A stretch of 32,000 nucleotides of DNA from Telmatocola sphagniphila (GTDB lineage Bacteria; Planctomycetota; Planctomycetia; Gemmatales; Gemmataceae), in the NCBI RefSeq assembly GCF_018398935.1, contig NZ_CP074694.1, positions 5,250,001 to 5,282,000 on the forward strand, given 5' to 3'. The position numbers and the translations under genes were made by a program. The notes beneath the pieces are model-generated. The model did no database searches. It was not told where the DNA came from and saw only the letters and a program-made list of their open reading frames with translations. This document shows positions 2,571 to 22,150 of this stretch, in pieces (positions within the stretch are counted from its first letter, which is position 1; each line of letters begins with the position of its first letter).

Positions 2571-3440
2571 ATGGCCTCATCCAAGTCCTCCGGGACTGTT
2601 CTTCTGGATATATTGAAGCATCGACACGAAAAGTTGTTGTCCGATTGGTGGGACGAATTGAAATCGCAGTCATCGATTTCAATTGCCCGCAATGGGGAAG
2701 AAGAATTGAAAGCCCAGATTGAGCGATTCATCGCGCTCATTCGACAATCGGCCGATGCGCAATCTCTCTCGAATTTGAATTCGGCAAACTGGCGCCCGCT
2801 GACCGAATATCTCCAGGAAATTTCCCGCTCGCGAGCTCAGCAGGGTTTTACCAGCGAGCAGACGGCTACTTTCATTTTTTCGCTAAAGAAACCCTTCTTC
2901 GAAGCCATCCGCCTGGAAACCGCGCATAGCCCCGAAAAAGCGGTCGCTGCGATGTGGGAGGTGACCGAGTTAATCGATCATCTGGGCTTATTGACCGTCG
3001 CCTATTTTCAGCAGAGCCGGGAAGAGGTCATTCGACGGCAGCAGGAAGAGCTGCTGGAGCTGTCGACTCCCGTGGTGAAACTCTGGGACGGTGTGCTCGC
3101 ACTGCCAATGATCGGCACTCTGGACAGCGCCCGAACGCAAATTGTCATGGAATCGCTACTGCAGCGGATCGTTGAGACCGAATCCGAACTCGCCATCATC
3201 GACATCACCGGTGTGCCGACCGTCGACACGCTCGTTGCTCAGCATCTTCTGAAGACGGTTACTGCAATTCGTCTGATGGGGGCGGATTGCATTATTAGCG
3301 GGATTCGTCCGCAGATCGCGCAAACCATCGTTCATCTGGGCGTTGATCTCCAGGGAGTGACGACGAAGTCCAACCTGGCCGATGCCCTGGCGCTGGCCCT
3401 CAAACGAACCGGCTTTACCGTAGCGAGGAATCGGCCGTGA
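2571..3440 (+). CDS. rsbR: RsbR-type stressosome sensor/co-antagonist (RsbRD_N-like N-terminal domain + C-terminal STAS)
   Basis: The C-terminus 'LSTPVVKLWDGVLALPMIGTLDSARTQ...AIIDITGVPTVDTLVAQHLL...ISGIRPQIAQTIVHLGVDL' is collinear with B. subtilis RsbRA STAS. Both phospho-Thr positions are conserved (DITGVP, AQTIV). The ORF opens at 2523; the start is probably MASSKSS at 2571. Confidence 0.9.
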   Translation: MASSKSSGTVLLDILKHRHEKLLSDWWDELKSQSSISIARNGEEELKAQIERFIALIRQSADAQSLSNLNSANWRPLTEYLQEISRSRAQQGFTSEQTATFIFSLKKPFFEAIRLETAHSPEKAVAAMWEVTELIDHLGLLTVAYFQQSREEVIRRQQEELLELSTPVVKLWDGVLALPMIGTLDSARTQIVMESLLQRIVETESELAIIDITGVPTVDTLVAQHLLKTVTAIRLMGADCIISGIRPQIAQTIVHLGVDLQGVTTKSNLADALALALKRTGFTVARNRP

Positions 3441-3841
3441 GCGAGGCTTCGACGCGAATACCCGTACTGCGAATGGGCGAATTCCTCCTCGTCACAATTC
3501 AAGTGGACATGCACGATCGCATGGCGCTTCAATTACAGGACGACTTGACGCGCCACATCGAGAAGACCGGTGCCCGGGGCGTTTTGATCGATATCTCGGC
3601 TTTGGAAATGGTCGATTCGTTCATCGGGCGAATGATTGCCAATATCTCCAGTATTTCGCAAATTCTGGATGCCCAGACAGTGATTGTCGGCATGCAGCCG
3701 GCCGTGGCGATTACCCTCGTCGAACTCGGCATGCAACTTGCGGGTGTAAAAACGGCTTTAACCGTCGAACGGGGTATGAAATGCCTGCGGGAAATGCGGG
3801 CCTCATCAGCGGGGGGAGAGCATGCCAGTCACGAAGAGTGA
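3437..3841 (+). CDS. rsbS: RsbS-type STAS scaffold protein (stressosome antagonist)
   Basis: 'IPVLRMGEFLLVTIQVDMHD...VLIDISALEMVDSFIGRM...VIVGMQPAVAITLVELGM' is collinear with RsbS and keeps the phosphorylatable Ser in 'MVDSFI'. Its GTG start overlaps the rsbR stop (GTGA). Confidence 0.9.
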   Translation: MSEASTRIPVLRMGEFLLVTIQVDMHDRMALQLQDDLTRHIEKTGARGVLIDISALEMVDSFIGRMIANISSISQILDAQTVIVGMQPAVAITLVELGMQLAGVKTALTVERGMKCLREMRASSAGGEHASHEE

Positions 3842-4226
3842 CACCCTTCCCTTGATGTCGGAGCAGGATATCGTCCATACCCGACAACTTGTTCGCAAAC
3901 TTGCGCTGGAACAGGGCTTTTCATTGGTCGATCAGACAAAACTGGTTACCGCCGCGAGCGAACTCGCTCGAAATACCGTCAAATATGGCGGCGGCGGACA
4001 CGTATTCTGGGAATTGCTCACAGACGGCTCCCGGAAAGGAATTCGTCTGCGCTTTCAGGATGAGGGGCCGGGAATCGAAGATGTCTCTCTGGCGATGACC
4101 GAGGGATGGACTTCCGGCAACGGTATGGGATTGGGGCTTTCCGGCTCCAAGCGGCTGGTCAATGAATTCGATATTGATTCTGCTCCTGGCCGGGGAACGC
4201 GTGTGACCATCGCCCGCTGGAAATAA
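3822..4226 (+). CDS. rsbT: RsbT-type GHKL serine kinase (stressosome switch kinase)
   Basis: N-box 'ASELARNTVKYG', G1 'QDEGPGI' and G2 'GNGMGLGLSGSKRL'. The N-terminus 'MSEQDIVHTRQLVRKLALEQGF' parallels B. subtilis RsbT. It overlaps rsbS by 20 nt. Confidence 0.9.
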   Translation: MPVTKSDTLPLMSEQDIVHTRQLVRKLALEQGFSLVDQTKLVTAASELARNTVKYGGGGHVFWELLTDGSRKGIRLRFQDEGPGIEDVSLAMTEGWTSGNGMGLGLSGSKRLVNEFDIDSAPGRGTRVTIARWK

Positions 4227-9326: not shown

Positions 9327-11696
9327 ATGAATCTTTCACATGTCATTCTCGGTAGATCGAATCGTAAAAAAGCTGCTCGTCCTATTCGAAAATCCAAAAC
9401 GATCCTGAAGTTCGAGACTCTCGAAGATCGGCTGCAACCCTCAGTCAGCGTGTTTCGGCCCATCACCGAGGTCGGCAACAATGTCGCCAACCCGACTTGG
9501 GGTGTTGCGGGAACCGATTTAATTCGGCTCACGGCCGCCGCCTATTCCAACGGGATCAATTCGCCTTCCTTACCCCAGGACCAAAGCGCCCGGGCCATCA
9601 GCGACATCCTTAATAGCCAGGCCGATCCGAACAATACGGCGTTAGACAGCCAGACGGTCAATCAGCAATCCTTGTCGGATTTTGTCTATAGCTTTGGTCA
9701 ATTCATGGATCACGACATGGATCTGACTCTCGATAATGGGGCTTCCGATCCGATTGCCGTACCCGTGGGAGATCCGATCGGCGGTTCGACCGATGCTTCC
9801 CTGGCGTTCAATCTGTCGAATGTCGATCCTGCCACCGGAACGAGTACCAAAAATCCCGCGCAGGATATCACTTCCATCACGGCTTATCTGGATCTGTCGC
9901 AAATTTACGGCTCCGATCTGGCAACCGATAATGCTTTGCGAACTTTCTCGGGCGGGCAGATGAAAACCAGCACCGGCGGTCTGCCACCGCTGGATAATCT
10001 GACGTACTTCACGGCCACCCAGTTGGCCCAGATCAATGCGTCTGTTGGCGGAATGGCGAACGATGGTCCCCTTCCCGAGTCGGATCTCTATGTCACGGGG
10101 GATACCCGGGGCAACGAAAACGTGGAGTTGACCGTTCTCCAGACTTTGTTCCTGGACAATCACAATAAGATCGCCAGTGAATTGCAGAAAATGAATCCGA
10201 CCTGGAGCGATGAGCAGATTTTCCAGGAAGCCAGAAAATTAAACATCGCGGAATATCAGGCGATCGTTTACAACGAATGGATACCCGATGTCCTCGGAGC
10301 GAATGCCCTACCCGCTTATAAGGGCTATAATCCGAGCGTTAACCCCAGCATTTCCAACGAATTTTCTACGGTTGCCTTTCGCTTCGGTCATAGCTTGCTG
10401 AGTGGCAATGTGGAACGACAAGGCAACGACGGTCAGGCCGTGGCGGACAGTGTTCCTTTGTCCGAGGATTTTTTTGATTCAAGCATTCTCAATGGGGAAG
10501 GCCAGGCCTCCACGACCGATCCTGTGACGGGATTGGCAACAACCGATATTGGTGCAGTATTGAAAGGCGATGCGGATGGGGATGCCCAGGCTGAAGACCC
10601 GCAGGTTATCAATGAAGTCCGCGATCTGCTTTTCAATGAAGTGATTCCGGGTGTAGGCGGTGGTCAGGATCTCATCGCACTGGATATTCAAAGAGGTCGA
10701 GTTAATGGCATCGGTTCTTATAACCAGGTGCGCGAAGGATTAGGGCTTCCGGCCGTTACAAGTTTTGCTCAAATAACCAGCAACGTTACAGTTCAGCAGG
10801 AATTGCAGCAAGCTTACGGCAATGTGAATAATATCGATGCCTTCGAAGGCGGCCTGGCGGAAGATCCGGTTCCTGGCTCGGATGTCGGCCCCTTGTTCCA
10901 GAAGATCATGGTCAATCAGTTTGAGCGCTTGCGAGATGGGGACCGCTTCTTTTATCTGAACGAAACTTTTACCCCTCAGGAATTTCAGATTTTCGAGCAG
11001 GGCAACACCCTATCCAAGGTGATTGAAAATAACACGGACATTACCAATCTTCAAAGCGACGTGTTTATCTTCCAGGCTTCAATCAGCGGCACAGTACACG
11101 GTTCCAGCCCCAATCACGCGGGCGTTCCCGGTATCACCGTTCAACTCGAAGATACCAGCGGCGATATCCTGGCAACGACTAAAACCGGACCCGGTGGACA
11201 CTACAGCTTTAATCAGCTGAGTGGTCCCGCAGCCGATCCCTCGAATGCTTCGGGCGTTTCCGGTACGGGTTATTATCAAATCGTGCTTTCGCTGCCGACC
11301 GGTGTCAAGCAGGTGACCCAGAGTCCAGCGGCCGTCTTGATTTCAGTGAGTGGAACGAACATAACCAGTGTGGATTTTGGCATCAATATCCCAGCCCCAC
11401 CCCCGCCTCCGCCCGCCGGACACGGTGGTCCGATGGGGCAATCGGGTCCTGGCATGCTGCCGAATATTCTTCAATCCCCGCCAGCATCGACTTCCGTAAC
11501 TAACGCTTCCTCCTCGAGTATAACTAGCGCAGCGCCCGTTGTGAAATCGAATCTATCGACCCCCCTGGATTTCAATTCACTCATGCAGGGAACTCGAGTT
11601 TCGAATTCGATTCTTGAACAAAAATCGGAAATGCGGGTTTATAAATCTACCCAGGTTTCGAATTTGGCTTCCGGGTTGTTCGTCACCGGGTTGTGA
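9327..11696 (+). CDS. Animal-haem-type peroxidase (peroxidase-cyclooxygenase superfamily) with a C-terminal CarboxypepD_reg/SdrD-B-like domain and a Pro/Ser-rich tail
   Basis: Distal site 'FGQFMDHDMDLT'. 'GDTRGNENVELTVLQTLFLDNHNKIA'. Proximal His 'FRFGHSLL'. 'DLIALDIQRGRVNGIGSYNQVR' and 'LRDGDRFFYLNE'. Then 'ISGTVHG...GITVQLEDTSGDILATTKTGPGGHYSF', followed by PAPPPPPPAG. Confidence 0.9.
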   Translation: MNLSHVILGRSNRKKAARPIRKSKTILKFETLEDRLQPSVSVFRPITEVGNNVANPTWGVAGTDLIRLTAAAYSNGINSPSLPQDQSARAISDILNSQADPNNTALDSQTVNQQSLSDFVYSFGQFMDHDMDLTLDNGASDPIAVPVGDPIGGSTDASLAFNLSNVDPATGTSTKNPAQDITSITAYLDLSQIYGSDLATDNALRTFSGGQMKTSTGGLPPLDNLTYFTATQLAQINASVGGMANDGPLPESDLYVTGDTRGNENVELTVLQTLFLDNHNKIASELQKMNPTWSDEQIFQEARKLNIAEYQAIVYNEWIPDVLGANALPAYKGYNPSVNPSISNEFSTVAFRFGHSLLSGNVERQGNDGQAVADSVPLSEDFFDSSILNGEGQASTTDPVTGLATTDIGAVLKGDADGDAQAEDPQVINEVRDLLFNEVIPGVGGGQDLIALDIQRGRVNGIGSYNQVREGLGLPAVTSFAQITSNVTVQQELQQAYGNVNNIDAFEGGLAEDPVPGSDVGPLFQKIMVNQFERLRDGDRFFYLNETFTPQEFQIFEQGNTLSKVIENNTDITNLQSDVFIFQASISGTVHGSSPNHAGVPGITVQLEDTSGDILATTKTGPGGHYSFNQLSGPAADPSNASGVSGTGYYQIVLSLPTGVKQVTQSPAAVLISVSGTNITSVDFGINIPAPPPPPPAGHGGPMGQSGPGMLPNILQSPPASTSVTNASSSSITSAAPVVKSNLSTPLDFNSLMQGTRVSNSILEQKSEMRVYKSTQVSNLASGLFVTGL

Positions 11697-11699
11697 TTC

Positions 11700-12183
11700 G
11701 GCCCCGGGTCATGATCATAACCCCGGGTGTTTTAAATTCCCCGGGTATGACCCGGGTGTTTTAGCATCCCCGGGTCATACCCGGGTCTAAGATCTGGAAC
11801 CCCTCCGGGGTTCCATTTTTATGATGCCGCGGAGGGGCATCAGAGATCAGCACCGGGTGAGCGTAGCGACACCCGGTGAAATAGGGTGAATGGAAAATGG
11901 GTAACGAAACCCGGGTGTTTTAGCATCCCCGGGTCATACCCGGGTCTAAGATCTGGAACCCCTCCGGGGTACGATTTTTATGATGCCCCGGAGGGGTTTC
12001 AGAGATCAGCACCGGGTGAGCGTAGCGACACCCGGTGAAATAGGGTGAATGGAAAATGGGTAACGAACCCCGGGTGTTTTAGCATCCCCGGGTCTTCGAT
12101 CTGGAACCCCTCCGGGGTTCCATTTTTATGATGCCGCGGAGGGGCATCAGAGATCAGCACCGGGTGAGCGTAGCGACACCCGG
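11700..12183. repeat. Tandem array of a ~159-bp palindrome-rich unit (2 full copies + 1 truncated copy), preceded by short CCCCGGGT sub-repeats
   Basis: Copy 1 is 11751-11909. Copy 2 is 11910-12067. Copy 3 is 12068-12183, with an 11-nt internal deletion and a truncated 3' end. The degenerate lead-in is 11702-11750. The copies are near-identical by eye. Confidence 0.9.
11796..11821 (+). terminator. Intrinsic-terminator-like hairpin inside repeat copy 1 (also present in copy 3 at 12103-12128)
   Basis: GGAACCCC-tcc-GGGGTTCC followed by ATTTTTA, about 100 nt downstream of the peroxidase stop. Confidence 0.5.
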
Positions 12184-12218
12184 TATATATTCATAAATAC
12201 GTCAATCACCGATTTATT

Positions 12219-12617
12219 TCACACCAAGAACCGGCCATCCGTAGCGGGCTCGTACGGCCGGTCCCATTGCAATACTTCGATTCGATTCCCGTCCGGGTCG
12301 CGAATAAAAAATCGGTCGGCGCCGGGGATCTTCACCGTTTCATCCACGGGAATGCCTTGTTCCCGACAGTGCTGACGGGCGGCCATTATATCCTTCACGT
12401 GCAGGCAGAAGTGTCGCGAACTGATCGAATCCGGCTGAGGCTTCAAGAGTAGATGAAGGTATGTGCCGCCTAGATCGTACCAGACCACCACGAAATCGAA
12501 GGTTCGCGGCGGCGCGATCTCGCGCAGTCCCAATTTTTCGCCGTAGAACTCTCGCGACCGGCCCACATCGGTGATCAACACCGAACAGTGATCGATGTGT
12601 GTAACGGGAAAAGCCAT
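12219..12617 (-). CDS. VOC family protein (glyoxalase/bleomycin-resistance/dioxygenase fold)
   Basis: 'ITHIDHCSVLITDVGRSREFYGEKLGL...HFCLHV...ADRFFIRDPDGNRIEV' is the typical VOC beta-alpha-beta-beta-beta pattern with its metal ligands. Confidence 0.9.
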   Translation of the reverse strand: MAFPVTHIDHCSVLITDVGRSREFYGEKLGLREIAPPRTFDFVVVWYDLGGTYLHLLLKPQPDSISSRHFCLHVKDIMAARQHCREQGIPVDETVKIPGADRFFIRDPDGNRIEVLQWDRPYEPATDGRFLV

Positions 12618-12697
12618 GGGGGAATTATAGCCGGTCCACGGCGGTCTGCAAAATGCCTATCATAGTCTCTTGCGGAAAACCCCCGTGAAAAGACTAC

Positions 12698-15235
12698 TTG
12701 GAAGGCTCGTTGATGTCGCTGACCCCGATGATGCAGCAGTACCAAGATGCCAAGACCCGGCATCCGGGAATGATTGTCCTGTTTCGCAATGGCGATTTTT
12801 ACGAACTTTTCGAAGACGATGCCGAGCTGGGCTCCAAGCTACTGGGCTTGACGCTCACCAAGCGCGACAAGCATATTCCCATGGCCGGTTTTCCGCATCC
12901 GCAACTCGAGCGGTATGTCGGCAAGTTCATTCAAGCCGGGCATCGCGTCGCGGTGTGCGAACAGGTCGAACAGCCGGACGCCAAGACTAAGCTGATTCGC
13001 CGGGAAGTGACCCGGGTGATTACCCCGGGCACGGTCACCGAGGAAGAACTGCTCGATCCACGTCAGCCCAATTATCTGTTGGCCATTCATTACAGCAAAT
13101 CGGACATTGGCTTGGCCTGGGTCGATCTGTCGACTGGCTCGTTCTGGGCTTGCGACTCCACACCGGAAGGTTTTGCGGACGATATCACTCGAATTAATTC
13201 GGCCGAGTGCCTGATCTCCGACAGCACCGCGGAAAAACTTCCTGAGGAGCTGCAGCGAATTCTGCCGCGCACTCGCAGCCGACGACCCGATTGGACCTTT
13301 GATTCCTCGACGGCCGTGGATGCTCTGAAAAAGCATTTTGCGGTGAAAAGTTTCGCCGGTTTCGGCTTCTCGAACGATCAAGCGGGTCTGGTGGCGGCCG
13401 GGGCGATCATCTTCTATCTGCAGGAGATGCTGAAGGCCAGCCTGGGTCATGTCCGCAAGATTGAGCCCTTCTTCAGCAAGGGCTATCTGATGCTGGACGA
13501 GGTGACGCGCCGAAGTCTGGAACTGACTCGCACTATGCGTGACGGCCAGCGTGACGGCTCTTTGTTGAGCATCATCGATCGCACAGTCACACCCATGGGA
13601 GCCCGCTTTCTGCACGATGCGATCCTCGCCCCGCTAAATAATATCGAACATATCAACGCCCGACTCGATGGCGTGCAGGAACTACTGTCTGAGTTTGCCT
13701 TGCGAGGCGAGTTGCGTTTGCTGCTCGATGCGACCTCCGACCTGCAGCGATTGACCGCACGCATCAGTACTCGCAGGGCCAATCCCAAGGATTTGGCCGC
13801 CGTGCAACGGACCTTGCGGCAACTCCCCAAGTTGAAAGCTCGGCTGGCCGGTCGCAAATCGGCCTTGCTGAGTGAATTGGAAGGCCGGCTGGAACTTTGC
13901 CACGAATTACGCGAGGCCATTGACTCGACGCTGACCGATGATCCCCCTTTCAACCCCTCCGACGGCGGGGTTATTCGCACCGGCTGTAACACGCAGCTCG
14001 ACGAATTGCGAAGTCTGGCCAGTGAAGGCAAAAATTGGATCGCCCGCTACCAGGCGCAAGAAATCACGCGTTCCGGCATCAACAGTCTGAAGGTCGGCTA
14101 CAACTCGGTGTTCGGCTATTACATCGAGATCACGAATATTCATACCGCCAAGGTGCCGGCCGATTACATTCGCAAGCAGACGCTGAAAAATGCGGAGCGC
14201 TATATCACGCCGGAGTTGAAGGAATACGAAGAAAAAGTTCTGACGGCCGAGGAACGCGCCCTGGCTCTGGAACAGGAATTGTTTGCGGCTTTACGGGAGC
14301 AGGCTGCGACGGAAATTCCGCGTTTGTTGAACACCGCCGAAGTTTTGGCTCGTCTCGATTTTCTGGCCGGGCTAGCGGAACTGGCCAGCGAGCGCGGCTA
14401 TATCCGGCCGATTCTCACCGAAGAGCCGATTCTGGAAATCATCGATGGGCGCCATCCCGTGCTCGATCAAACTCTGCCGCCGGGAACGTTCGTGCCTAAC
14501 GATGCCGCTTTGCACCCGGCCGAGAGCCGCTTCTGGCTGATTACCGGGCCGAATATGTCGGGTAAGAGCACGTTCATTCGCCAGGTCGCGCTGTTGACAT
14601 TACTGGCTCATGTGGGCAGTTATGTCCCGGCCAAGTACGCGCTGGTAGGACGGACGGATCGGATATTTACTCGAGTTGGCGCCGCCGATGAGCTGAACCG
14701 CGGCCTGAGTACCTTCATGGTTGAGATGACCGAAGCGGCCAACATTCTGAATAACGCCACGCCGAACAGTCTGGTGATTCTCGATGAAATCGGTCGGGGT
14801 ACGAGTACCTATGATGGCGTTTCGCTGGCCTGGGCCATTACCGAACATCTGCACGATTACGTCGGTTGTCGGACGCTGTTCGCAACCCATTATCACGAAT
14901 TGGCTCAGTTATCCGAAACGCTGACAGCCCTGAAGAATTATCACGTGCAGGTGACCGAAGATCATCGGGAGATTGTGTTTCTGCACAAGATATCGCCCGG
15001 CTTCGCGGAGCGGAGCTATGGCATTCACGTGGCCAAGCTGGCCGGGGTGCCGGAGTCGGTTTTGAAGCGGGCCGAAGGCATTCTGACCGAACTCGAGTCG
15101 CGTCATGCATTACCGGAAGCGCAGCGGCCGAAGCTGACGGTGCCGCCGGAGAAGATGAAAAAGCTGAAGCGGGAGCGGGTGATCACCGGCCCGACTCTGT
15201 TTACGTGGGACGAGGGACCCGAGGAAACAAAATAG
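12698..15235 (+). CDS. mutS: DNA mismatch repair protein MutS
   Basis: 'TPMMQQYQDAKTRHPGMIVLFRNGDFYELFEDDA' is the mismatch-binding domain. Walker A is 'GPNMSGKSTFIRQ'. 'LDEIGRGTSTYDG' and 'FATHYHEL' are also present. The start may be the ATG at 12713 (MSLTPMM...). Confidence 0.97.
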   Translation: MEGSLMSLTPMMQQYQDAKTRHPGMIVLFRNGDFYELFEDDAELGSKLLGLTLTKRDKHIPMAGFPHPQLERYVGKFIQAGHRVAVCEQVEQPDAKTKLIRREVTRVITPGTVTEEELLDPRQPNYLLAIHYSKSDIGLAWVDLSTGSFWACDSTPEGFADDITRINSAECLISDSTAEKLPEELQRILPRTRSRRPDWTFDSSTAVDALKKHFAVKSFAGFGFSNDQAGLVAAGAIIFYLQEMLKASLGHVRKIEPFFSKGYLMLDEVTRRSLELTRTMRDGQRDGSLLSIIDRTVTPMGARFLHDAILAPLNNIEHINARLDGVQELLSEFALRGELRLLLDATSDLQRLTARISTRRANPKDLAAVQRTLRQLPKLKARLAGRKSALLSELEGRLELCHELREAIDSTLTDDPPFNPSDGGVIRTGCNTQLDELRSLASEGKNWIARYQAQEITRSGINSLKVGYNSVFGYYIEITNIHTAKVPADYIRKQTLKNAERYITPELKEYEEKVLTAEERALALEQELFAALREQAATEIPRLLNTAEVLARLDFLAGLAELASERGYIRPILTEEPILEIIDGRHPVLDQTLPPGTFVPNDAALHPAESRFWLITGPNMSGKSTFIRQVALLTLLAHVGSYVPAKYALVGRTDRIFTRVGAADELNRGLSTFMVEMTEAANILNNATPNSLVILDEIGRGTSTYDGVSLAWAITEHLHDYVGCRTLFATHYHELAQLSETLTALKNYHVQVTEDHREIVFLHKISPGFAERSYGIHVAKLAGVPESVLKRAEGILTELESRHALPEAQRPKLTVPPEKMKKLKRERVITGPTLFTWDEGPEETK
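15178..15217. repeat. Left copy of a perfect 40-bp direct repeat (inside the mutS 3' end)
   Basis: GGTGATCACCGGCCCGACTCTGTTTACGTGGGACGAGGGA is identical to 17170-17209. Confidence 0.95.
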
Positions 15236-15311
15236 TACTGTGGTACGTTCTAAAACGAATTGGAATTGTCAACAGTTAATCAGCTCAAAAATTTTCTAAA
15301 TAGGTAAAACT

Positions 15312-17114
15312 ATGAGTAGATCTGCCCGGGTAGGACAAGCTCTATTTTTCATCATTTTTGCGATCATATTAACGCATCAAACTTCAATTATAATTTCGCG
15401 AATTCGGCATGGAGGCTCTTTCGCGTTCTGGGCGCGTGATATCTGCTTTGCTGGGGGATTTTTGTCTTATTTTGTCTTTTTATACAAGGGTGATTTGAGC
15501 TTTAAGCCGTATATGTTTTGGGTGTCCTTGATCTACGGAGCTATATGTCTGAAAGAGGCATTTGATATCTTCAAGACCGTGCAACCTGTTGAAGATATTC
15601 CGCTTCAACAGCGAGCCAAACTGGTGGCGTTTGTTAGCATTCTTTTGGGATTGTTCTACATATCCGCAGCGTTGTTATTTAAGTACTTAAAATCGATAAT
15701 TGCATTTTTGAATCATCAAGAGCGAGTGTCGACCACCGGAACAGGAGGCTTTGTCGATTGGATACTGAATCCGGGATGGCGAAGGTCCCTAGAAGAGAAT
15801 ACCGCACCTAAAGAATTGAATGAAACGCAGTGTCGGCAGCTCGTTCAGCGGCTTGTATCGGAAAATTACGATGATGGAGTCCGCTATGCCTTGCGGCACG
15901 CAGGTCCGGCGAAAATTCTACCATTAGTCGAGGCACTTCAAAACGATCAATGTCTAAGGCCTTATGACAATGCTAAATCGGCCCACTTTGGGACGACTCC
16001 CTATGAGCAAATACTCAATCAGCTGAATGAATCTTACCCAGAAGAGTCGTTACCGATCGTGTTACGCCATGCCGAGTCTGAAGACATCAATATCAGAAAA
16101 GCCTCTATCAGCTATCTAGCGGGAATAAGCTCTCCGGAGTGCTTGCCTGCTCTGAAAAAAGCCTTGGAGCGGGCCGATAAAGAAATTCTCTCCGGTTTGC
16201 TATGGGGCTTGATACATCATCTGTCTTCAAAAAGTCCTCAACAGATTCAGCAGCTATCACAAGAATTGTACGATCCGATTCTTCAGTTATTGAAGCAGAA
16301 TGAGGAACGAGATTTAGAAGAGCCTTTAGCCAAATCTCTGCTATCTCTTGATCGTTCTAAAGCCCAAAAAGATATGACAGACCCCAATATTTTGAAGCTG
16401 GATCGTCCACAACTCTTTCGAATTCTGGAAGCTTTGAACAAATTCGAGATCGCGATCCCAGAAACTGAGTGTTTGAAGATATTGCAAGCCGTTTTCTCAG
16501 AGAGAGAAGACTATCCCAATAGCTATATTTACTCCCAAATTGTCATCGCATTAGCTCGAATCAAATCGCCAAAAGCTCAAGCTTTGATCGAGGAATCATT
16601 TGCTAATATCACGGATAAAATGATTCGCGAATCCCTCTGTGAAGCGAAATTGTTACTAAACGACATCTCCGATCCTTACAAAGTCGTTTTCCGGAAAGAA
16701 GAAAAAATCGGTTTTAAGGGACTTTCAGCACCTCAAAGAGCAATCTATACCACCTATTTTTTGAAAGCGGAAGTCGATAATGGGGGGTTCAGCCAATACT
16801 TGGTCAATTCTTCTGGAGATCATTTTCGAGAGGCCTTGGATGGTTGTCGAGCAATAGGCGATCTTAAAGCGGTTGCCCTGCTTACCGAAATCAGCAAGTA
16901 TTTCGGTTCCGATGGTCCCTCCGATAATCATGATCGTCGACACGATCAGTTATCCAAAATTTATACCTCCCATGAAGATGATTTTTCTCGTCTGGACTCG
17001 GAATATTACGCATCGGATGCGGAGCGTACCGTACTGTGGATGGAGTATATCCTTCAGAACAAGTCCGATTTCATTAAAGAAAAAACTTCTCAAGGCGAAC
17101 AGAAAGACTCCTAA
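15312..17114 (+). CDS. Membrane protein: ~4 N-terminal TM helices + HEAT-like repeats + C-terminal DUF4375 (DMP19-like) domain
   Basis: Hydrophobic segments lie in residues ~9-125. 'HAESEDINIRKASISYLAGISSPECLPALKKALERAD' is HEAT/PBS-lyase-like. 'LSAPQRAIYTTYFLKAEVDNGGFSQYLVNSSGDHFREALDGCRAIG' is the DUF4375 core signature. GC is about 40%, against about 58% in mutS. Confidence 0.8.
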   Translation: MSRSARVGQALFFIIFAIILTHQTSIIISRIRHGGSFAFWARDICFAGGFLSYFVFLYKGDLSFKPYMFWVSLIYGAICLKEAFDIFKTVQPVEDIPLQQRAKLVAFVSILLGLFYISAALLFKYLKSIIAFLNHQERVSTTGTGGFVDWILNPGWRRSLEENTAPKELNETQCRQLVQRLVSENYDDGVRYALRHAGPAKILPLVEALQNDQCLRPYDNAKSAHFGTTPYEQILNQLNESYPEESLPIVLRHAESEDINIRKASISYLAGISSPECLPALKKALERADKEILSGLLWGLIHHLSSKSPQQIQQLSQELYDPILQLLKQNEERDLEEPLAKSLLSLDRSKAQKDMTDPNILKLDRPQLFRILEALNKFEIAIPETECLKILQAVFSEREDYPNSYIYSQIVIALARIKSPKAQALIEESFANITDKMIRESLCEAKLLLNDISDPYKVVFRKEEKIGFKGLSAPQRAIYTTYFLKAEVDNGGFSQYLVNSSGDHFREALDGCRAIGDLKAVALLTEISKYFGSDGPSDNHDRRHDQLSKIYTSHEDDFSRLDSEYYASDAERTVLWMEYILQNKSDFIKEKTSQGEQKDS

Positions 17115-17169
17115 TTCAAGTGAAATCGTGTTACACATTGCCGGAAGCAAAATGGCTCAAACTTAAGCC

Positions 17170-17209
17170 GGTGATCACCGGCCCGACTCTGTTTACGTGG
17201 GACGAGGGA
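17170..17209. repeat. Right copy of the perfect 40-bp direct repeat
   Basis: Identical to 15178-15217. Confidence 0.95.
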
Positions 17210-17227
17210 GAGTCGGAGAAGGGGTGA
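17171..17227 (+). pseudogene. Orphaned ancestral 3' end of mutS (VITGPTLFTWDEGESEKG*)
   Basis: It reads in the mutS frame across the repeat and ends at a TGA (17225-17227). A strong terminator follows 22 nt later. The live mutS reads VITGPTLFTWDEGPEETK*. Confidence 0.7.
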
Positions 17228-17249
17228 GCTGATGGATAATCGCTTTTCG

Positions 17250-17277
17250 AAAAAAGTCTCATCTGTGAGACTTTTTT
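17250..17277. terminator. Bidirectional rho-independent terminator
   Basis: AAAAAAGTCTCA-tctg-TGAGACTTTTTT is a perfect 12-bp stem including A/T tracts on both sides. Confidence 0.8.
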
Positions 17278-17328
17278 AGTTGAACTTCTTATCATTCTCT
17301 GGGATTATGAGAGATAGGAGGCAAGCCC

Positions 17329-17703
17329 ATGACAGTGGCAGTTTTCGATCTGAATTCCCGGCGAAAAGCGTTAAAAATGCCGGTGGATATACTCGTGAAA
17401 CGCTCCGGTGTGCCACGACCGACGGTTTTCCGCATACTTCGGGGGAATACGGACAAGGTGCGCTTTGGGTATGTTCAAAGGGTCGCGGAAGTCCTCGGGT
17501 TAGGATTCGGACAGCCCGCTTTGGATCCGGAAGAACTTCGGCGGCAGGAAGCAAAACGGAAAGCTCGTTTGCTGCGTCGGCTTACTCAGGGCACTATGGG
17601 GCTCGAAGCGCAGGCAGTATCGGATGAAGTGCTGAGCGAATTGGAAGAAATGACGATTGCAAAATTACTGGCTGGTAAAGGCCGCAAGCTCTGGAGCGAT
17701 TGA
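17329..17703 (+). CDS. XRE-like HTH protein, 'mobile mystery protein A'-like (putative antitoxin/regulator of the adjacent Fic)
   Basis: 'RRKALKMPVDILVKRSGVPRPTVFRILRGNTDKVRFGYVQRVAEVLGL' fits an HTH_XRE pattern. AGGAGG lies 10 nt upstream of the ATG. Its stop overlaps the start region of the Fic gene. Confidence 0.75.
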   Translation: MTVAVFDLNSRRKALKMPVDILVKRSGVPRPTVFRILRGNTDKVRFGYVQRVAEVLGLGFGQPALDPEELRRQEAKRKARLLRRLTQGTMGLEAQAVSDEVLSELEEMTIAKLLAGKGRKLWSD

Positions 17704-18293
17704 CGCTTATGACCTGGAAGTCGATCCCCGGTGAAACTCCGATTGATCCATCCGGTTTACGCAGTAAGAGTATCCGCACGAGAAAGCAACTCAACGAGGC
17801 TGAAGGTCGAAATATCGCCCAGCCTATTTTCAAATATTTGATCGGGGAATTGAAACCTGAAATGGCTCCTTTCGACCTGACATGGACTCTGGCTCTTCAT
17901 GAAGAAATGTTCGGAAAGGTTTGGGAGTGGGCCGGCCAAACTCGCAAAATCGATCTGAATATGGGTGTCTCCTGGCACCAAGTTGAAACGCAGCTTTACG
18001 ACTTGCTGCAGAGAATTCCATTTTGGAGCGATAAATCATTAGTCGAACAAGCAGCTCGAATTCATCACGGAGCGGTAGCAATCCATCCGTTCTTGAATGG
18101 TAACGGTCGCTGGTCGCGAATGCTTGCCAACATCTGGCTTAAACTTAACCACTCTAAAGTGACGGTTTGGCCTGAGCAAGCGGTGGGCGAAGTCAGTATC
18201 ATCCGTGAGGAGTATCTACAAGCCATTCGAGCTGCAGATAGCCTGGATTTCAATCCACTAATTCAATTACACGAAAAGTATTCGGAATTATAA
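17700..18293 (+). CDS. Fic/DOC family protein, 'mobile mystery protein B'-like
   Basis: Fic motif 'HPFLNGNGRWSR'. The N-terminus 'IPGETPIDPSGLRSKSIRTRKQLNEAEGRNI' is typical of this subfamily. The TTG at 17700 overlaps the upstream TGA; an alternative ATG is at 17709. Confidence 0.9.
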   Translation: MTLMTWKSIPGETPIDPSGLRSKSIRTRKQLNEAEGRNIAQPIFKYLIGELKPEMAPFDLTWTLALHEEMFGKVWEWAGQTRKIDLNMGVSWHQVETQLYDLLQRIPFWSDKSLVEQAARIHHGAVAIHPFLNGNGRWSRMLANIWLKLNHSKVTVWPEQAVGEVSIIREEYLQAIRAADSLDFNPLIQLHEKYSEL

Positions 18294-18386
18294 TTTTGAG
18301 TATTCAGCAAAAAAAAATCTGATTTCATGTTATGTAACAAATGATAATCCATCAGTTGACTGAATGATAAAAACTTGGAGTGGAAG

Positions 18387-19241
18387 TCACTTCCCCTCTT
18401 TCAACAGCGGTTCGTCCAGCTTCCACCGCTTCTTGAATTCATTTTTTAAGAACTCCAAACCCGCTATCTCCGGTTCTTCCGAGTCGGGCTGGGATTTTCC
18501 AAGCATTGAAATGGGACGCACAGCGGTTGGCTCTTTCATAGACACCGTTTGAATGGGTACAGATGACTTTTCGACCTTAGCCGGTTCGGGATCCTTCTTT
18601 ACATCAGCTATCAAAGCCGCGAAATAAAGAGGATCCTTCTCCAGAATTTGCGTCGCGAATTTTCGAGCCTCCGCCGGGCGGTTGGCCTTGGCGGCTAATT
18701 CGTAACTCTTGCGCAGAATCAGCAAATGCTTCCGAGTCGGATCTTTCTCGGCATTCAGCTGAGGAATCAATTCCGCAAGGATCGCATGCTCCGCCGCTAT
18801 ATGACAAACCACCACCGACTCCACGGCCGGGAAATATTCCACTTTGTCCAAATTGTCTTCGAGTTTGGAAAGCAGTGTCTCCCTCAAGACTTTCGCGATA
18901 TCCGGAAAAGTTTCAATTTTGTAGGTTTGAATTACTAAATCCGTTGGTTTGGCTTTCTGTAATAAAGTTGGATCGGGTAATTGCAGATTCGCGACATCTA
19001 CTTTGGGTATCTGGATTTCTATTTCGGATTTTTCGAGCCCCTTGATTTCGAAAGAATCAAGCTTCCTCGCTTCATCCTTCATCTCTTTCCAGCTCACATC
19101 ACGATAGATGCCGATTTTTTTCTCTACCGGGACCTCAGGAGTGACTTGAGCCAACTCTTTTAAAGGTCTGGTTCGCATTCCCCAATAACTCAACAACCCC
19201 ACACCGGCGAAAACCAGAAGAAATAAAGCAATCCTTCGCAT
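18387..19241 (-). CDS. Hypothetical secreted/membrane-anchored protein (284 aa)
   Basis: N-terminal signal/anchor 'MRRIALFLLVFAGVGLLSYWG'. A long uninterrupted ORF at about 45% GC. I recognise no family motif. The C-terminal half is helical/TPR-like (ANRPAEARKFATQILEKDPLYF). Confidence 0.65.
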   Translation of the reverse strand: MRRIALFLLVFAGVGLLSYWGMRTRPLKELAQVTPEVPVEKKIGIYRDVSWKEMKDEARKLDSFEIKGLEKSEIEIQIPKVDVANLQLPDPTLLQKAKPTDLVIQTYKIETFPDIAKVLRETLLSKLEDNLDKVEYFPAVESVVVCHIAAEHAILAELIPQLNAEKDPTRKHLLILRKSYELAAKANRPAEARKFATQILEKDPLYFAALIADVKKDPEPAKVEKSSVPIQTVSMKEPTAVRPISMLGKSQPDSEEPEIAGLEFLKNEFKKRWKLDEPLLKEGK

Positions 19242-19414
19242 GGCGATGCTCCTGAGAGAATAAATCGTACTTCAGGGTACCCAGTCTGTTTTTTTTCGCC
19301 AAGGTCAACTTCCGCGACAATTTCGATTCAATAGACCTCCGGCAGGCCCAAAAAGAACTCGTACTCTCCGCCGGTTTCTGTTATCCTGCCCAGACCAATA
19401 TCGCGAGACTACCC

Positions 19415-22150
19415 ATGCGCCGAATTTCCGCTCTTTTTCTGCTGTTTCTGACCTCCTGCGGCGGAGGAAATAAACCCCAAGCCAAGGTCGAAATCGCCGA
19501 GGCCCCGGCCACTACCAAGGCCGAGACGAAAAAGCTCGAACCGGAAAAAGTGACCGTCAAAGCGGTGGAACTGAGCGACTACGGCTATCGATTTGTCATT
19601 GATTTGCCAACTGATGTGCTAGTCGAGCCGCAGAAGGATGGCGCTGTGCTTCTGAAGCGAGGCGAAACCCTGGCCATCCGGATCGACCGAAAGTCGAGCG
19701 CTTTCAATCTGGCCGATCAGGAGGAGTTGGACGTTAATCATGCTTCCACTTTTTTCGGCAGCGAACTCGAACCGGCCCTGCGCTTCCAGTTCGATAAACA
19801 GGAAAAGGGAGACGTCCGCCAGCTGGAAGGTCGCTTGCAACCGGGCAAAGCCGGTTATGCGGTTCACATTGCCGGTAAGTTCACCGAAGCTCAGATGAAC
19901 GAAATGGTGGCAATTCTGGCCACGGCGCGCGTCAACGAATCGATCAAACTGCTCGAACAGAAGCAGGAAGATGCGGCCGTCCGGCTGTCGCAGACGAAGA
20001 TCGCGATCCGTCGCCAAAATGGCCTTCCCACACTCGCGTTGGACCGGCCCGTTTCGCCGGAGCTGCTTCCCGATCTCTTGAGCCTCATCGATCTGCGCGG
20101 CCTCGCCTTCTACAAGTATCCGTTCAAAGACGCCGATCTGGTACCTTTCGCCAAAATTCCCTTCGTGGAAAATCTGCTGCTCGAAGGACCGGGCATTTCC
20201 GACAAAGCTTTTGAAACCATCAAGCAGTGGAAGTGGCTGCGCGAACTGCGACTGATCGGTACGCAGGTAATCGGCACCGGCTTCAACGATCTGCGAAGTG
20301 CCCAGTATCTTCAGGAAGTTTCGATCAGCTTTGGCCCATTCCGAAATGCCGGGCTGCAATCGCTTCAGGGTGTGCCGCTGGAGAAGATCACGCTGAATAC
20401 CACGGACATCACCGATTCGGGTGTCGCTTTTCTATCTCAGATACCGACCTTGCGAACGATCACCCTGATTGATAATCGGGTCGAGGGCAAAGCCATCGAG
20501 GGCCTGAGCAAGATGCCCGAATTGAAATCGCTGGCATTCATCGCCTGCCCTTTGGACGCTGCGGCCTTCAAAGCAATTGCCGGCTGTGTCAAGCTCGAAT
20601 CGCTGGCGTTTGGCAATATCGCCCTGGGCACCAGCGATCTCAGCTGGCTGGGCTCACTGAAGGACTTGGAATCGCTCAGCTTCTTCGATACCGATATGAC
20701 CGCTAAATCTCTGCAGACGCTGGCCGCCGGCCCGGCCCTGAAAACCCTGCAGATTCGCGATGTGAATTTGCCCGAAGCGGAACTGCTGGCTTTCGAAAAG
20801 AAGAATGCGAACCTGAAGGTGCAATATCCGCGGCCGCGGGCCGAGCCCGATCTGCTGGGTGTATTACCTCCCAAACCGATTTCTGAATTGCCGGCGGCCG
20901 ATCCTAAGAAGATGATCGATACCCATAAAGGGCAAATCAAAATTAACGAAGAGGCCGAAGGGAAGCCGATTGTGGCCGTCGTGTTGAAAAATAGTCAGGT
21001 CAGCAATTTGGATCTGGCGGAACTCCGCTCGCTGAACAAGCTCGAACGACTCGATTTGACCAATTGCCCCGGCGTGTTCGACCAGGGGCTGGCGTACATC
21101 GGGGAACTGAAAAACCTGCAAGTACTGAAGCTCAATGGCACCAGCATCACGGGCGACGGCTTCGGTTTTCTGAAGGATCTCAAGAACCTGACGACCCTGG
21201 AACTGCCCAATCAAAATTTCACGACCAAGCAGCTGGCCCCCTTGATGGCCTTGCCCAATCTGGAACGAATCAACTGTCTCAATGGCGAAAATCTTTACTT
21301 CAAGCTGAAGAATCTCGAAGGCTTGAAGAATCTGAAGGAACTCGATCTTACCAGCCCCGATATGGTCGGCTTCGATCCTTTGATGTTTCTGCCGCATTTC
21401 AAGAAGCTGGAATCCTTGAAGGTGAACAACCCGGCCTCGCGATCCTTGCCCAAGGTCGGTGAACTCGTGGAATTGCGGACGCTTCAGATGACGGGCATTT
21501 ATTATTCGCGACTGGATCAGTGGAGACCGCTCAGCAATTTGAAGGAACTTCGCGAATTGACGATTTCCAGTGGCATGCTGGATGACACGAAATTAGTTGT
21601 GCTTCGCGAACTCTCTAACTTGGAAAAGCTGCACTTGAACTGTCCGCGATTGACGGATAAGGGCATTGGCCGCGTGCGCGATTACGGCAAGCTGCGCGAC
21701 CTGTCGCTGGCCGACTGCGGCATCTCCGATGCAACGCTCGAAAGCATCGGCGATATGAAGGAACTGGAAGAGCTCGATTTGACGGGGACTCAAATTACCG
21801 ATGCCGGATTGGCCAAATTGAAGGAAATGGAAGAGCTTCGCAATTTGAAGATTGGCAACGATAAGTTGACCGGTAAAGGGTTGAACGAGTTGCGTTCTCT
21901 GAAGCGGATTCGCACGCTTCAATTGTCGGATATGAAATTCGTGGACGGCACGGCCGAGGCGATTCGCGGTTTGAACGGCCTAATCGAAGTGCATCTGCTC
22001 GGATGTTCGCTGAAGTCTAGTGATGTGGAGAAGATCCTCGGCCTGCCGGAATTGCGCCGGCTAACACTCCCGACCTTGATCGAGACCGAGCAGGCGAAGG
22101 TGGACGAGATCGTGAAGAAGTATCCGAAGGTGAAGATTGTGGTGCAATGA
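19415..22150 (+). CDS. Large leucine-rich-repeat (RNI-like LRR) lipoprotein
   Basis: Lipobox 'LFLLFLTSC|GGG'. More than 20 repeats of the type 'LxxLxxLxLxxTxITDxGLxxLxxL' run through the C-terminal ~650 aa. Confidence 0.9.
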   Translation: MRRISALFLLFLTSCGGGNKPQAKVEIAEAPATTKAETKKLEPEKVTVKAVELSDYGYRFVIDLPTDVLVEPQKDGAVLLKRGETLAIRIDRKSSAFNLADQEELDVNHASTFFGSELEPALRFQFDKQEKGDVRQLEGRLQPGKAGYAVHIAGKFTEAQMNEMVAILATARVNESIKLLEQKQEDAAVRLSQTKIAIRRQNGLPTLALDRPVSPELLPDLLSLIDLRGLAFYKYPFKDADLVPFAKIPFVENLLLEGPGISDKAFETIKQWKWLRELRLIGTQVIGTGFNDLRSAQYLQEVSISFGPFRNAGLQSLQGVPLEKITLNTTDITDSGVAFLSQIPTLRTITLIDNRVEGKAIEGLSKMPELKSLAFIACPLDAAAFKAIAGCVKLESLAFGNIALGTSDLSWLGSLKDLESLSFFDTDMTAKSLQTLAAGPALKTLQIRDVNLPEAELLAFEKKNANLKVQYPRPRAEPDLLGVLPPKPISELPAADPKKMIDTHKGQIKINEEAEGKPIVAVVLKNSQVSNLDLAELRSLNKLERLDLTNCPGVFDQGLAYIGELKNLQVLKLNGTSITGDGFGFLKDLKNLTTLELPNQNFTTKQLAPLMALPNLERINCLNGENLYFKLKNLEGLKNLKELDLTSPDMVGFDPLMFLPHFKKLESLKVNNPASRSLPKVGELVELRTLQMTGIYYSRLDQWRPLSNLKELRELTISSGMLDDTKLVVLRELSNLEKLHLNCPRLTDKGIGRVRDYGKLRDLSLADCGISDATLESIGDMKELEELDLTGTQITDAGLAKLKEMEELRNLKIGNDKLTGKGLNELRSLKRIRTLQLSDMKFVDGTAEAIRGLNGLIEVHLLGCSLKSSDVEKILGLPELRRLTLPTLIETEQAKVDEIVKKYPKVKIVVQ

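Follow-up and report, generated by a model that had tools for sequence, protein, structure and literature searches.

A single gene of foreign composition between two copies of the mutS tail in Telmatocola sphagniphila: a possible case of insertion-duplication

How does a gene of foreign composition come to lie between the last codons of a housekeeping gene and a terminator, with a piece of that housekeeping gene on either side of it? We address this question for mutS of the peat-bog planctomycete Telmatocola sphagniphila (Gemmataceae), in a stretch of 32,000 nucleotides of its chromosome (contig NZ_CP074694.1, positions 5,250,001 to 5,282,000 of the forward strand), hereafter the window, in which all positions are counted from the first letter. 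An original prediction, made from the letters of this DNA, held that a compositionally foreign insertion sits in the extreme 3' end of mutS with a duplicated piece of the gene at both sides, and the repeat and the GC content described here bear this out. The reading that we favor, and hold with middling confidence, is a Campbell-type insertion-duplication through homology to the mutS tail, of which an integrase-less remnant resembling a cis-mobilizable element (CIME) is now left.

Architecture of the locus

The locus comprises the following features.

12698 to 15235, forward strand: mutS, complete, with Pfam domains MutS_I to MutS_V and an NCBIfam MutS equivalog match of 1022 bits.
15178 to 15217, forward strand: repeat copy 1, inside mutS, encoding VITGPTLFTWDEG, the region of a beta-clamp-binding-type motif (PTLF).
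15218 to 15311, forward strand: the last five mutS codons (PEETK, then stop) and a 76-nt AT-rich spacer without a terminator-like hairpin.
15312 to 17114, forward strand: cargo gene of 600 residues, with a GC content of 43.4%, a GC content at third codon positions (GC3) of 0.438, and Pfam domains HEAT_2 (residues 237-292) and DMP19/DUF4375 (residues 470-583).
17138 to 17227, forward strand: putative untranslated relic of the mutS tail, LPEAKWLKLKP-VITGPTLFTWDEG-ESEKG, with its stop in register with the mutS stop.
17167 to 17182, no strand: perfect 16-nt palindrome GCCGGTGATCACCGGC, spanning the left edge of repeat copy 2.
17170 to 17209, forward strand: repeat copy 2, identical to copy 1.
17250 to 17277, no strand: perfect 12-bp hairpin with an A-run and a T-run at its sides, terminator-like in both directions.

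The two copies of the 40-mer GGTGATCACCGGCCCGACTCTGTTTACGTGGGACGAGGGA, at 15178-15217 and 17170-17209, match without a single mismatch, and no such pair would be expected by chance, none of 100 shuffles having given even one 37/40 match. The copies are spaced by 1992 nt, or 664 codons, which places them in the same reading frame. Copy 1 is followed in MutS by PEETK and a stop (TAG at 15233-15235), and copy 2, read in the frame of mutS, by ESEKG and a stop (TGA at 17225-17227), so that the two endings proposed in the original prediction are both present; the two stops, too, lie 1992 nt apart and hence exactly in register (15233 + 1992 = 17225). The palindrome at the left edge of copy 2 has an equivalent at copy 1 (15175-15190) that carries one mismatch.

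That the pair arose by chance, belongs to a repeat dispersed through the genome or is an artefact of assembly is barely credible. The search for further copies, which returned none in the window with up to three mismatches allowed, covers 32 kb of a 6.59-Mb genome, and to this extent dispersal has some room. Against it, besides the shuffles, stands the record itself, which is a complete 6.59-Mb chromosome, and the 40-mer, being in frame and homologous by position to the MutS tails of relatives, is part of mutS. Moreover, a degenerate scan for DNA encoding GPTLFxWDE, which covers codons 4-12 of the 40-mer, gave 12 hits in the metagenome collection, none of them mutS, and no hits in the viral collection.

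The DNA between the repeats (1,952 bp) has a GC content of 42.8%, compared with 57.1% for mutS and 52.1% for the window, close to the values of about 40% and about 58% first proposed. It holds one gene, as predicted, and the GC3 of this cargo gene is the lowest among 22 window genes, most of which lie at 0.57-0.69. The left junction of the insert lies somewhere within 15218-15311. The hairpin at 17250-17277 has a folding free energy of -22.8 kcal/mol over a 76-nt stretch (z -2.5 compared with shuffles), whereas the DNA that follows the present mutS stop is no more foldable than its shuffles (z -0.86), in agreement with the predicted bidirectional terminator after copy 2 and the absence of one after position 15235. 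The terminator scanner did not report the hairpin because its T-run belongs to the stem. The sole convincing terminator is the one after copy 2.

MutS itself is left intact by the insertion. The protein is a 100% match to T. sphagniphila P0003 (840 residues, a length that by manual count corresponds to the ATG start at 12713) and ends in KRERVITGPTLFTWDEGPEETK. In other planctomycetes the MutS C-terminus consists of a basic stretch leading into QLTLF and then a helical domain of about 45 residues, while Gemmataceae MutS ends a few residues past GP[TS]LF. The PTLF motif aligns in position with QLTLF/GPTLF in the tails of other planctomycetes, and the beta-clamp motif, with the consensus QL[S/D]LF, is found at the MutS C-terminus in Pseudomonas (PMC5027486); judged by this position, the repeat would encode the beta-clamp-motif region of MutS. 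Because both endings retain the motif, the insertion should be silent for repair. A deletion between the repeats would exchange the last five residues of MutS yet should not disable repair either, a point that calls for caution in annotation.

Two side observations concern MutS tails more generally. In the MutS tails compared (P0003-P0131; loci L001-L022), those of Gemmataceae lack the C-terminal domain of about 45 residues (with the pattern LTPxEAxxLL) that other planctomycetes retain. In a Planctomycetales metagenome-assembled genome (MAG), an in-frame TAG in mutS (L003:10506-10508) occupies the Q position of the QLxLF clamp motif, after which the normal tail resumes in frame (QQK, stop, LFDFPEDPLLDEIRKLEIDNLSPIQAL).

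The cargo protein is identical to P0001, annotated in T. sphagniphila as a 'DUF4375 domain-containing protein', and by inspection has about four hydrophobic segments within residues 1-140. An exhaustive HMMER search recovered 449 cluster representatives at E<1e-10, which are HEAT and DMP19 proteins of roughly 450-490 residues, at most 35% identical to the cargo (about 30% for full-length matches); their matches start after about residue 110, and none covers most of the N-terminal membrane part of the cargo. A word-indexed search gave one distant homologue only, P0002, 28% identical. The DMP19 of Neisseria is described as a DNA-mimic protein that blocks a helix-turn-helix (HTH) regulator and HU (PMC3384305, PMC5722371). 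Against plasmids the cargo protein gave one weak unrelated match, and against phages and viral contigs none. The possibility that it is the native membrane-HEAT neighbor found 2-3 kb downstream of mutS in two Gemmataceae loci (L099, L101) was rejected, as BLASTP and profile comparison showed no relationship. As a separate observation, the P0002 gene is bracketed by 36-nt direct repeats of its own (L096:194-229 and 1873-1908; 89% identical, with hairpin potential); these are unrelated to mutS, and L096 has no mutS tail near P0002.

A second case and the extent of the duplicated tail

In a scan of 87 mutS loci at the DNA and protein levels, only one locus besides the window, L019, had a second mutS tail. 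This locus belongs to a Planctomycetota MAG (JAKPDO010000006.1, region 10473-11788) with a MutS 50% identical to that of the window. Its mutS (GC3 0.73) stops at 10562, and 23 nt later begins a single cargo gene (GC3 0.55) that encodes a signal-peptide-bearing phosphodiesterase of the alkaline-phosphatase superfamily. This cargo runs in frame into a copy of the last approximately 29 mutS codons, with the stop in register, and thereby ends with the MutS C-terminal helix-loop-helix peptide. The second tail is 88% identical to the first over about 89 nt, with weaker homology over approximately 90 nt further upstream (p about 0.006); copy 1 is native-like throughout while copy 2 is diverged upstream of the 88% block. 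By eye, without folding, a possible small hairpin and a T-rich run follow the second tail. There is no recombinase within 8 kb, and the neighbors are housekeeping genes. The window and L019 represent distant lineages with different tails and different cargo, and both have in-register stops and no recombinase nearby. The layout in which mutS is followed by one gene of odd composition and then by a second tail has therefore originated at least two times.

The duplication in the window probably exceeds 40 bp. Identity widens to 43/44 over 15174-15217, and in the 20 nt upstream of the copies 12/20 positions are identical in register, a level reached at 8 of 2719 random window positions with the same offset (p about 0.003). 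Read in frame, copy 2 gives LPEAKWLKLKP, the core and ESEKG, compared with PPEKMKKLKRER, the core and PEETK in mutS, and this protein-level match to the MutS tail has an E of 6e-9 within the window. A gapped test over 40 nt, however, was not significant (p 0.17), and identity in the right flank (5/18) is at chance level. We therefore grade the putative relic by extent: 17150-17227 has statistical support and is a probable relic of the mutS tail, and 17138-17149 is suggestive, which makes 17138-17227 a possible relic of the whole tail, so that a diverged copy of some 78-90 nt with an in-register stop would have been left behind. Because the same 40 nt in the closest relative are only about 67% identical at the DNA level (manual count), the perfection of the block is not conservation and instead reflects a recent exchange, duplication or conversion. 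No third tail copy, as a sign of a tandem array, was found in the window at the DNA or motif level. An origin of the left flank of copy 2 in a foreign clade was considered and dropped, since this flank resembles the host-clade tail about as much as it does the KLKPQITGPTLF clade.

These tails raise the question of whether the second one has a function of its own, which we consider very improbable. The product would be either a small clamp-motif peptide, starting at GTG 17120 or TTG 17138, or an extension of the cargo by a -1 shift at the A6 run 17080-17085, and it would be able to compete for the beta clamp. The frame is indeed open over 17078-17227, overlapping the last 12 cargo codons, the L019 cargo is in frame with its second tail, and a MutS clamp-motif peptide displaces partners from the clamp in vitro (PMC5027486). 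Selection at the protein level, however, would not preserve 13 synonymous sites, the cargo frame has no canonical slippery heptamer, and no homologues of such a peptide were found. In addition, the cargo appears from its sequence to be membrane-anchored, and the signal peptide of the L019 cargo means that its tail would be exported. As observations in their own right, the open tail frame amounts to 49 codons, and the A6 run lies at its start, so that the cargo is one -1 shift away from gaining a clamp-motif tail.

Route of insertion and neighborhood

We suggest that a circular, foreign DNA molecule about 2 kb long, which bore one gene and a segment resembling the mutS tail, may have undergone a single Campbell exchange with the chromosomal mutS tail, placing the cargo between two hybrid tails. 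The upstream hybrid would complete a working mutS with its clamp-motif region retained, while the downstream hybrid would persist as an untranslated relic with its stop at the same position, followed by the terminator. The 40 bp would represent the exchange segment, either an identical core or a heteroduplex tract that was corrected to one sequence, which would explain the steep fall of identity to the left and right of it. A single reciprocal exchange of this kind would yield direct repeats, an intact gene, the observed composition pattern and an absence of mobility genes, with sharp edges if the block equals the tract, as well as random-looking right ends, the cargo stop being kept in the window and lost in L019. 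Because no recombinase is encoded, the exchange would have relied on the homologous recombination of the host or on a site-specific recombinase whose gene lies elsewhere. The element would now be fixed, or at best mobilizable in cis, and the cargo, to which a promoter scan assigned no promoter, would probably share with mutS a transcript that ends at the 17250-17277 hairpin. Under this model the circle junction should read CTTAAGCC, the 40-mer, CCCGAGGAAACAAAATAG, and the empty site should read GGGAGCG, the 40-mer and GAGTCGGAGAAGGGGTGA, followed by the hairpin.

We scanned the cargo and its immediate neighbors with Pfam, NCBIfam, PHROGs and PADLOC and the other large open reading frames (ORFs) of the window with Pfam, and found no integrase, tyrosine or serine recombinase, transposase or reverse transcriptase among them. 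The window also has no tRNA, no Rfam family was found in 11000-20000, and no entry in the inverted-repeat list joins the two insert borders; the original prediction that integrase, transposase and terminal inverted repeats are missing therefore stands. Transposons and insertion sequences duplicate short targets of about 2-15 bp, and here a duplication of at least 40 bp is found, with no transposase and no inverted repeats at the borders. An element driven by its own integrase would be expected to encode its recombinase, which this one does not, although the att-like direct repeats (40/40) with an intact target gene are as such an element would leave them. Nor does the insert resemble an integron cassette: there is no intI in the window, by eye a mutS-tail relic rather than an attC follows the cargo, and the only GTT-type heptamer there, GTTTACG, does not fit GTTRRRY (judged by eye, no covariance search being made). 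In a diversity-generating retroelement, finally, a reverse transcriptase would be present and the repeats would differ at adenines, whereas here they are identical.

The genes just downstream (17329-19241) also have a lower GC3 (0.49-0.53), and they begin with the following pair.

17329 to 18293, forward strand: HTH gene (17329-17703) and Fic gene (17700-18293), assigned by Pfam and NCBIfam, with lower GC3.

For 'mobile mystery protein B' the Fic protein scores above the NCBIfam cut-off, and it also matches the PADLOC candidate PDC-S04, while the match of the HTH protein to 'mobile mystery protein A' is weak (33 bits vs a cut-off of 123). The pair is probably a second acquired module and need not belong to the insert.

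The surroundings yielded several further observations. In 17224-17297 and 18343-18376, at the two sides of the HTH-Fic pair, are two short inverted-repeat pairs (18 nt at 83%, 15 nt at 87%), whose order is not mirrored. Upstream of mutS, between a peroxidase and a glyoxalase gene, 11750-12184 holds 2.8 tandem copies of a 159-nt unit (92% matches) that is rich in CCCGGG-type hairpins; a 37-nt pair within this stretch, at 12000 and 12148, is perfect. In four Gemmataceae loci (L095, L099, L100, L101), STAS and HATPase_c_2 genes lie upstream of mutS, the HATPase gene ending 180-470 nt before it, and in L095 a PDDEXK_2 gene stands between the HATPase_c_2 gene and mutS. The equivalent STAS/HATPase_c_2 pair of the window (3437-4226) lies approximately 8.5 kb upstream of mutS, and between the two are kinases, an animal-haem-peroxidase homologue (9327-11696), the tandem repeat and the glyoxalase gene.

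An origin by site-specific integration, in which a former integrase island used the mutS tail as attB, lost its integrase and transfer genes and kept attL and attR, so that a related element elsewhere could still mobilize it, seems to us unlikely. It would explain the restored frame, the foreign composition and the position of the direct repeats at a conserved gene's 3' end. A recombinase might act on the 16-nt palindrome at the edge of copy 2, and the adjoining low-GC HTH-Fic pair, with its match to 'mobile mystery protein B' in the Fic protein, hints that DNA was acquired repeatedly at this place. Even so, no integrase remnant was found in ORFs of at least 60 residues between or beside the repeats, no third att-like copy is present in the window, and the metagenome, viral, plasmid and phage collections searched and 101 fetched loci hold no related element. 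Moreover, for a decayed island a size of 2 kb, with a single gene, is very small, and L019 has the same layout amid housekeeping genes.

Searches beyond the window were directed at an empty site, that is, mutS with the same tail and without the insert, and none was found in the genome, protein or metagenome collections searched. The genome-collection scan with MutS gave relatives of at most 62% identity, and the protein database closer ones, P0004 (84%) and the fragment P0123 (86% over the tail). The loci of these two, L081 and L094, respectively, share no neighbors with the window; the gene at the same place is a hypothetical gene in L081 and Uma2 in L094. The DNA of the 2.1-kb region had no match among plasmids and phages, and the 40-mer had none in the 101 fetched loci.

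Which of the two endings is ancestral bears directly on the route of insertion. In the original prediction ESEKG and the terminator were ancestral and the insert supplied PEETK, and an alignment of relatives' mutS genes was proposed as a check. The MutS proteins of the insert-free closest relatives end in KRERVPTGPTLFAWDEGPEN (P0123/L094; AWDEGPEN, then stop) and GPTLFVWDEPKE (P0004/L081; VWDEPKE, then stop), not in ESEKG. After WDE(G) these ends share Pro-Glu/Lys with the present end GPEETK, whereas ESEKG shares nothing with them, and at the DNA level CCCGAGGAA and CCGAAGGAA are identical at 7/9 positions. The alignment proposed as a check could thus be made and went against the expected ending, but as a test it is weak because the relatives are only about 76% identical in mutS DNA. 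Synonymous-codon usage points the opposite way: the ESEKG codons are host-like (log10 ratio +0.48), and insert-like values are seen in the codons that follow copy 1 (-0.12) and those that precede copy 2 (-0.26). Such a pattern would correspond to host-core-insert at attL and insert-core-host at attR, as a Campbell exchange leads one to expect. The two signals conflict, each resting on a handful of codons, and the predicted order of endings is not confirmed.

The relatives' tails fit an alternative that we regard as possible but doubtful, namely, a duplicative insertion just past the stop codon by break repair or template switching, in which the last 80-90 nt of mutS were duplicated. The upstream GPEETK end would then be native and under selection, while the downstream copy would decay except for its central 40 nt, re-homogenized by gene conversion. 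Consistent with this alternative, the present end resembles GPEN and PKE and the ESEKG end does not, the stops are in register with a 12/20 upstream flank, and in L019 copy 1 is native-like throughout while copy 2 has diverged upstream of its 88% block. However, it needs an extra conversion event with a sharp right edge, where there is no flanking homology (5/18), the flanks are closer to the Campbell pattern in their codon usage, and no known bacterial insertion route routinely yields target duplications of 80-180 nt.

Several points count against the Campbell-type exchange that we favor. The natural circularization of a 2-kb fragment is not common; the element was not found elsewhere in the metagenome, viral, plasmid and phage searches; with the right flank at chance, the longer relic rests on 20 nt and the stop register; and the exchange predicts ESEKG as the native end, yet the ends of the relatives resemble GPEETK.

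Significance and relation to known systems

If the insertion is a one-off, it is a case in which a foreign gene slipped between the last codons of a housekeeping gene and its terminator and left that gene unharmed, the newcomer gaining transcription and termination. Should it be general, the parallel in L019 may point to tail-carrying cassettes moved by host recombination alone, that is, recombinase-free gene gain in a phylum with poorly known mobile elements, and it would provide a searchable signature: a duplicated gene tail, in-register stops and a single gene of odd composition in between. In this line we speculate, with little confidence, that single-gene cassettes without an integrase land repeatedly at the mutS tail in Planctomycetota; each would bring its own tail copy, spread as a pop-out circle and re-enter by host recombination without ever damaging the target gene.

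Duplications of gene ends around islands are textbook knowledge. Less usual here are the one-gene size, the clamp-motif tail of mutS as target, the total absence of mobility genes and the second occurrence in a distant lineage. Several known systems share some of these traits. SpyCI of Streptococcus pyogenes is a phage-like island with an integrase in the mutS-mutL region that interrupts mutL expression; as in the window, a mobile insert is tied to a mismatch-repair gene, but the window insert has no integrase and MutS is intact. Integrative mobile elements exploiting Xer (IMEX) rely on the host Xer recombinase and are flanked by 28-bp dif-like sites with two 11-bp arms and a 6-bp center. Like these elements, the insert has no recombinase of its own and has short direct repeats at both ends; unlike in IMEX, the repeat is mutS coding sequence, and it does not seem to be built of two arms about a 6-bp center, the 16-nt palindrome at one edge having no spacer. 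The minimal mobile elements of Neisseria are cassettes between conserved genes that are exchanged by transformation and homologous recombination. They resemble the insert in their cargo of one or a few genes without mobility genes, beside a conserved housekeeping gene where relatives carry different genes, and differ in that they are not defined by a duplicated gene end.

In laboratory insertion-duplication, a circular DNA with a fragment of a target gene integrates by a single crossover of the Campbell type. The likeness to the locus is close, as the target fragment is doubled around the inserted DNA and no dedicated recombinase is needed; here, however, the event would be a natural one, and the homology is very short (40-90 nt) and diverged outside the core. 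A comparison from nature is with CIMEs, which are integrase-less remnants of ICEs (integrative and conjugative elements) or IMEs (integrative and mobilizable elements) with attL and attR at a target gene's 3' end (PMC5704250). The insert shares with them its flanking repeats, the intact gene, the foreign composition and the lack of integration and transfer genes. It differs from them in showing no evidence of descent from an ICE or IME, in having no known cognate element or integrase and in comprising one gene in 2 kb; furthermore, its target is mutS in a planctomycete, and the surroundings of the repeat core look like a diverged copy of the whole tail.

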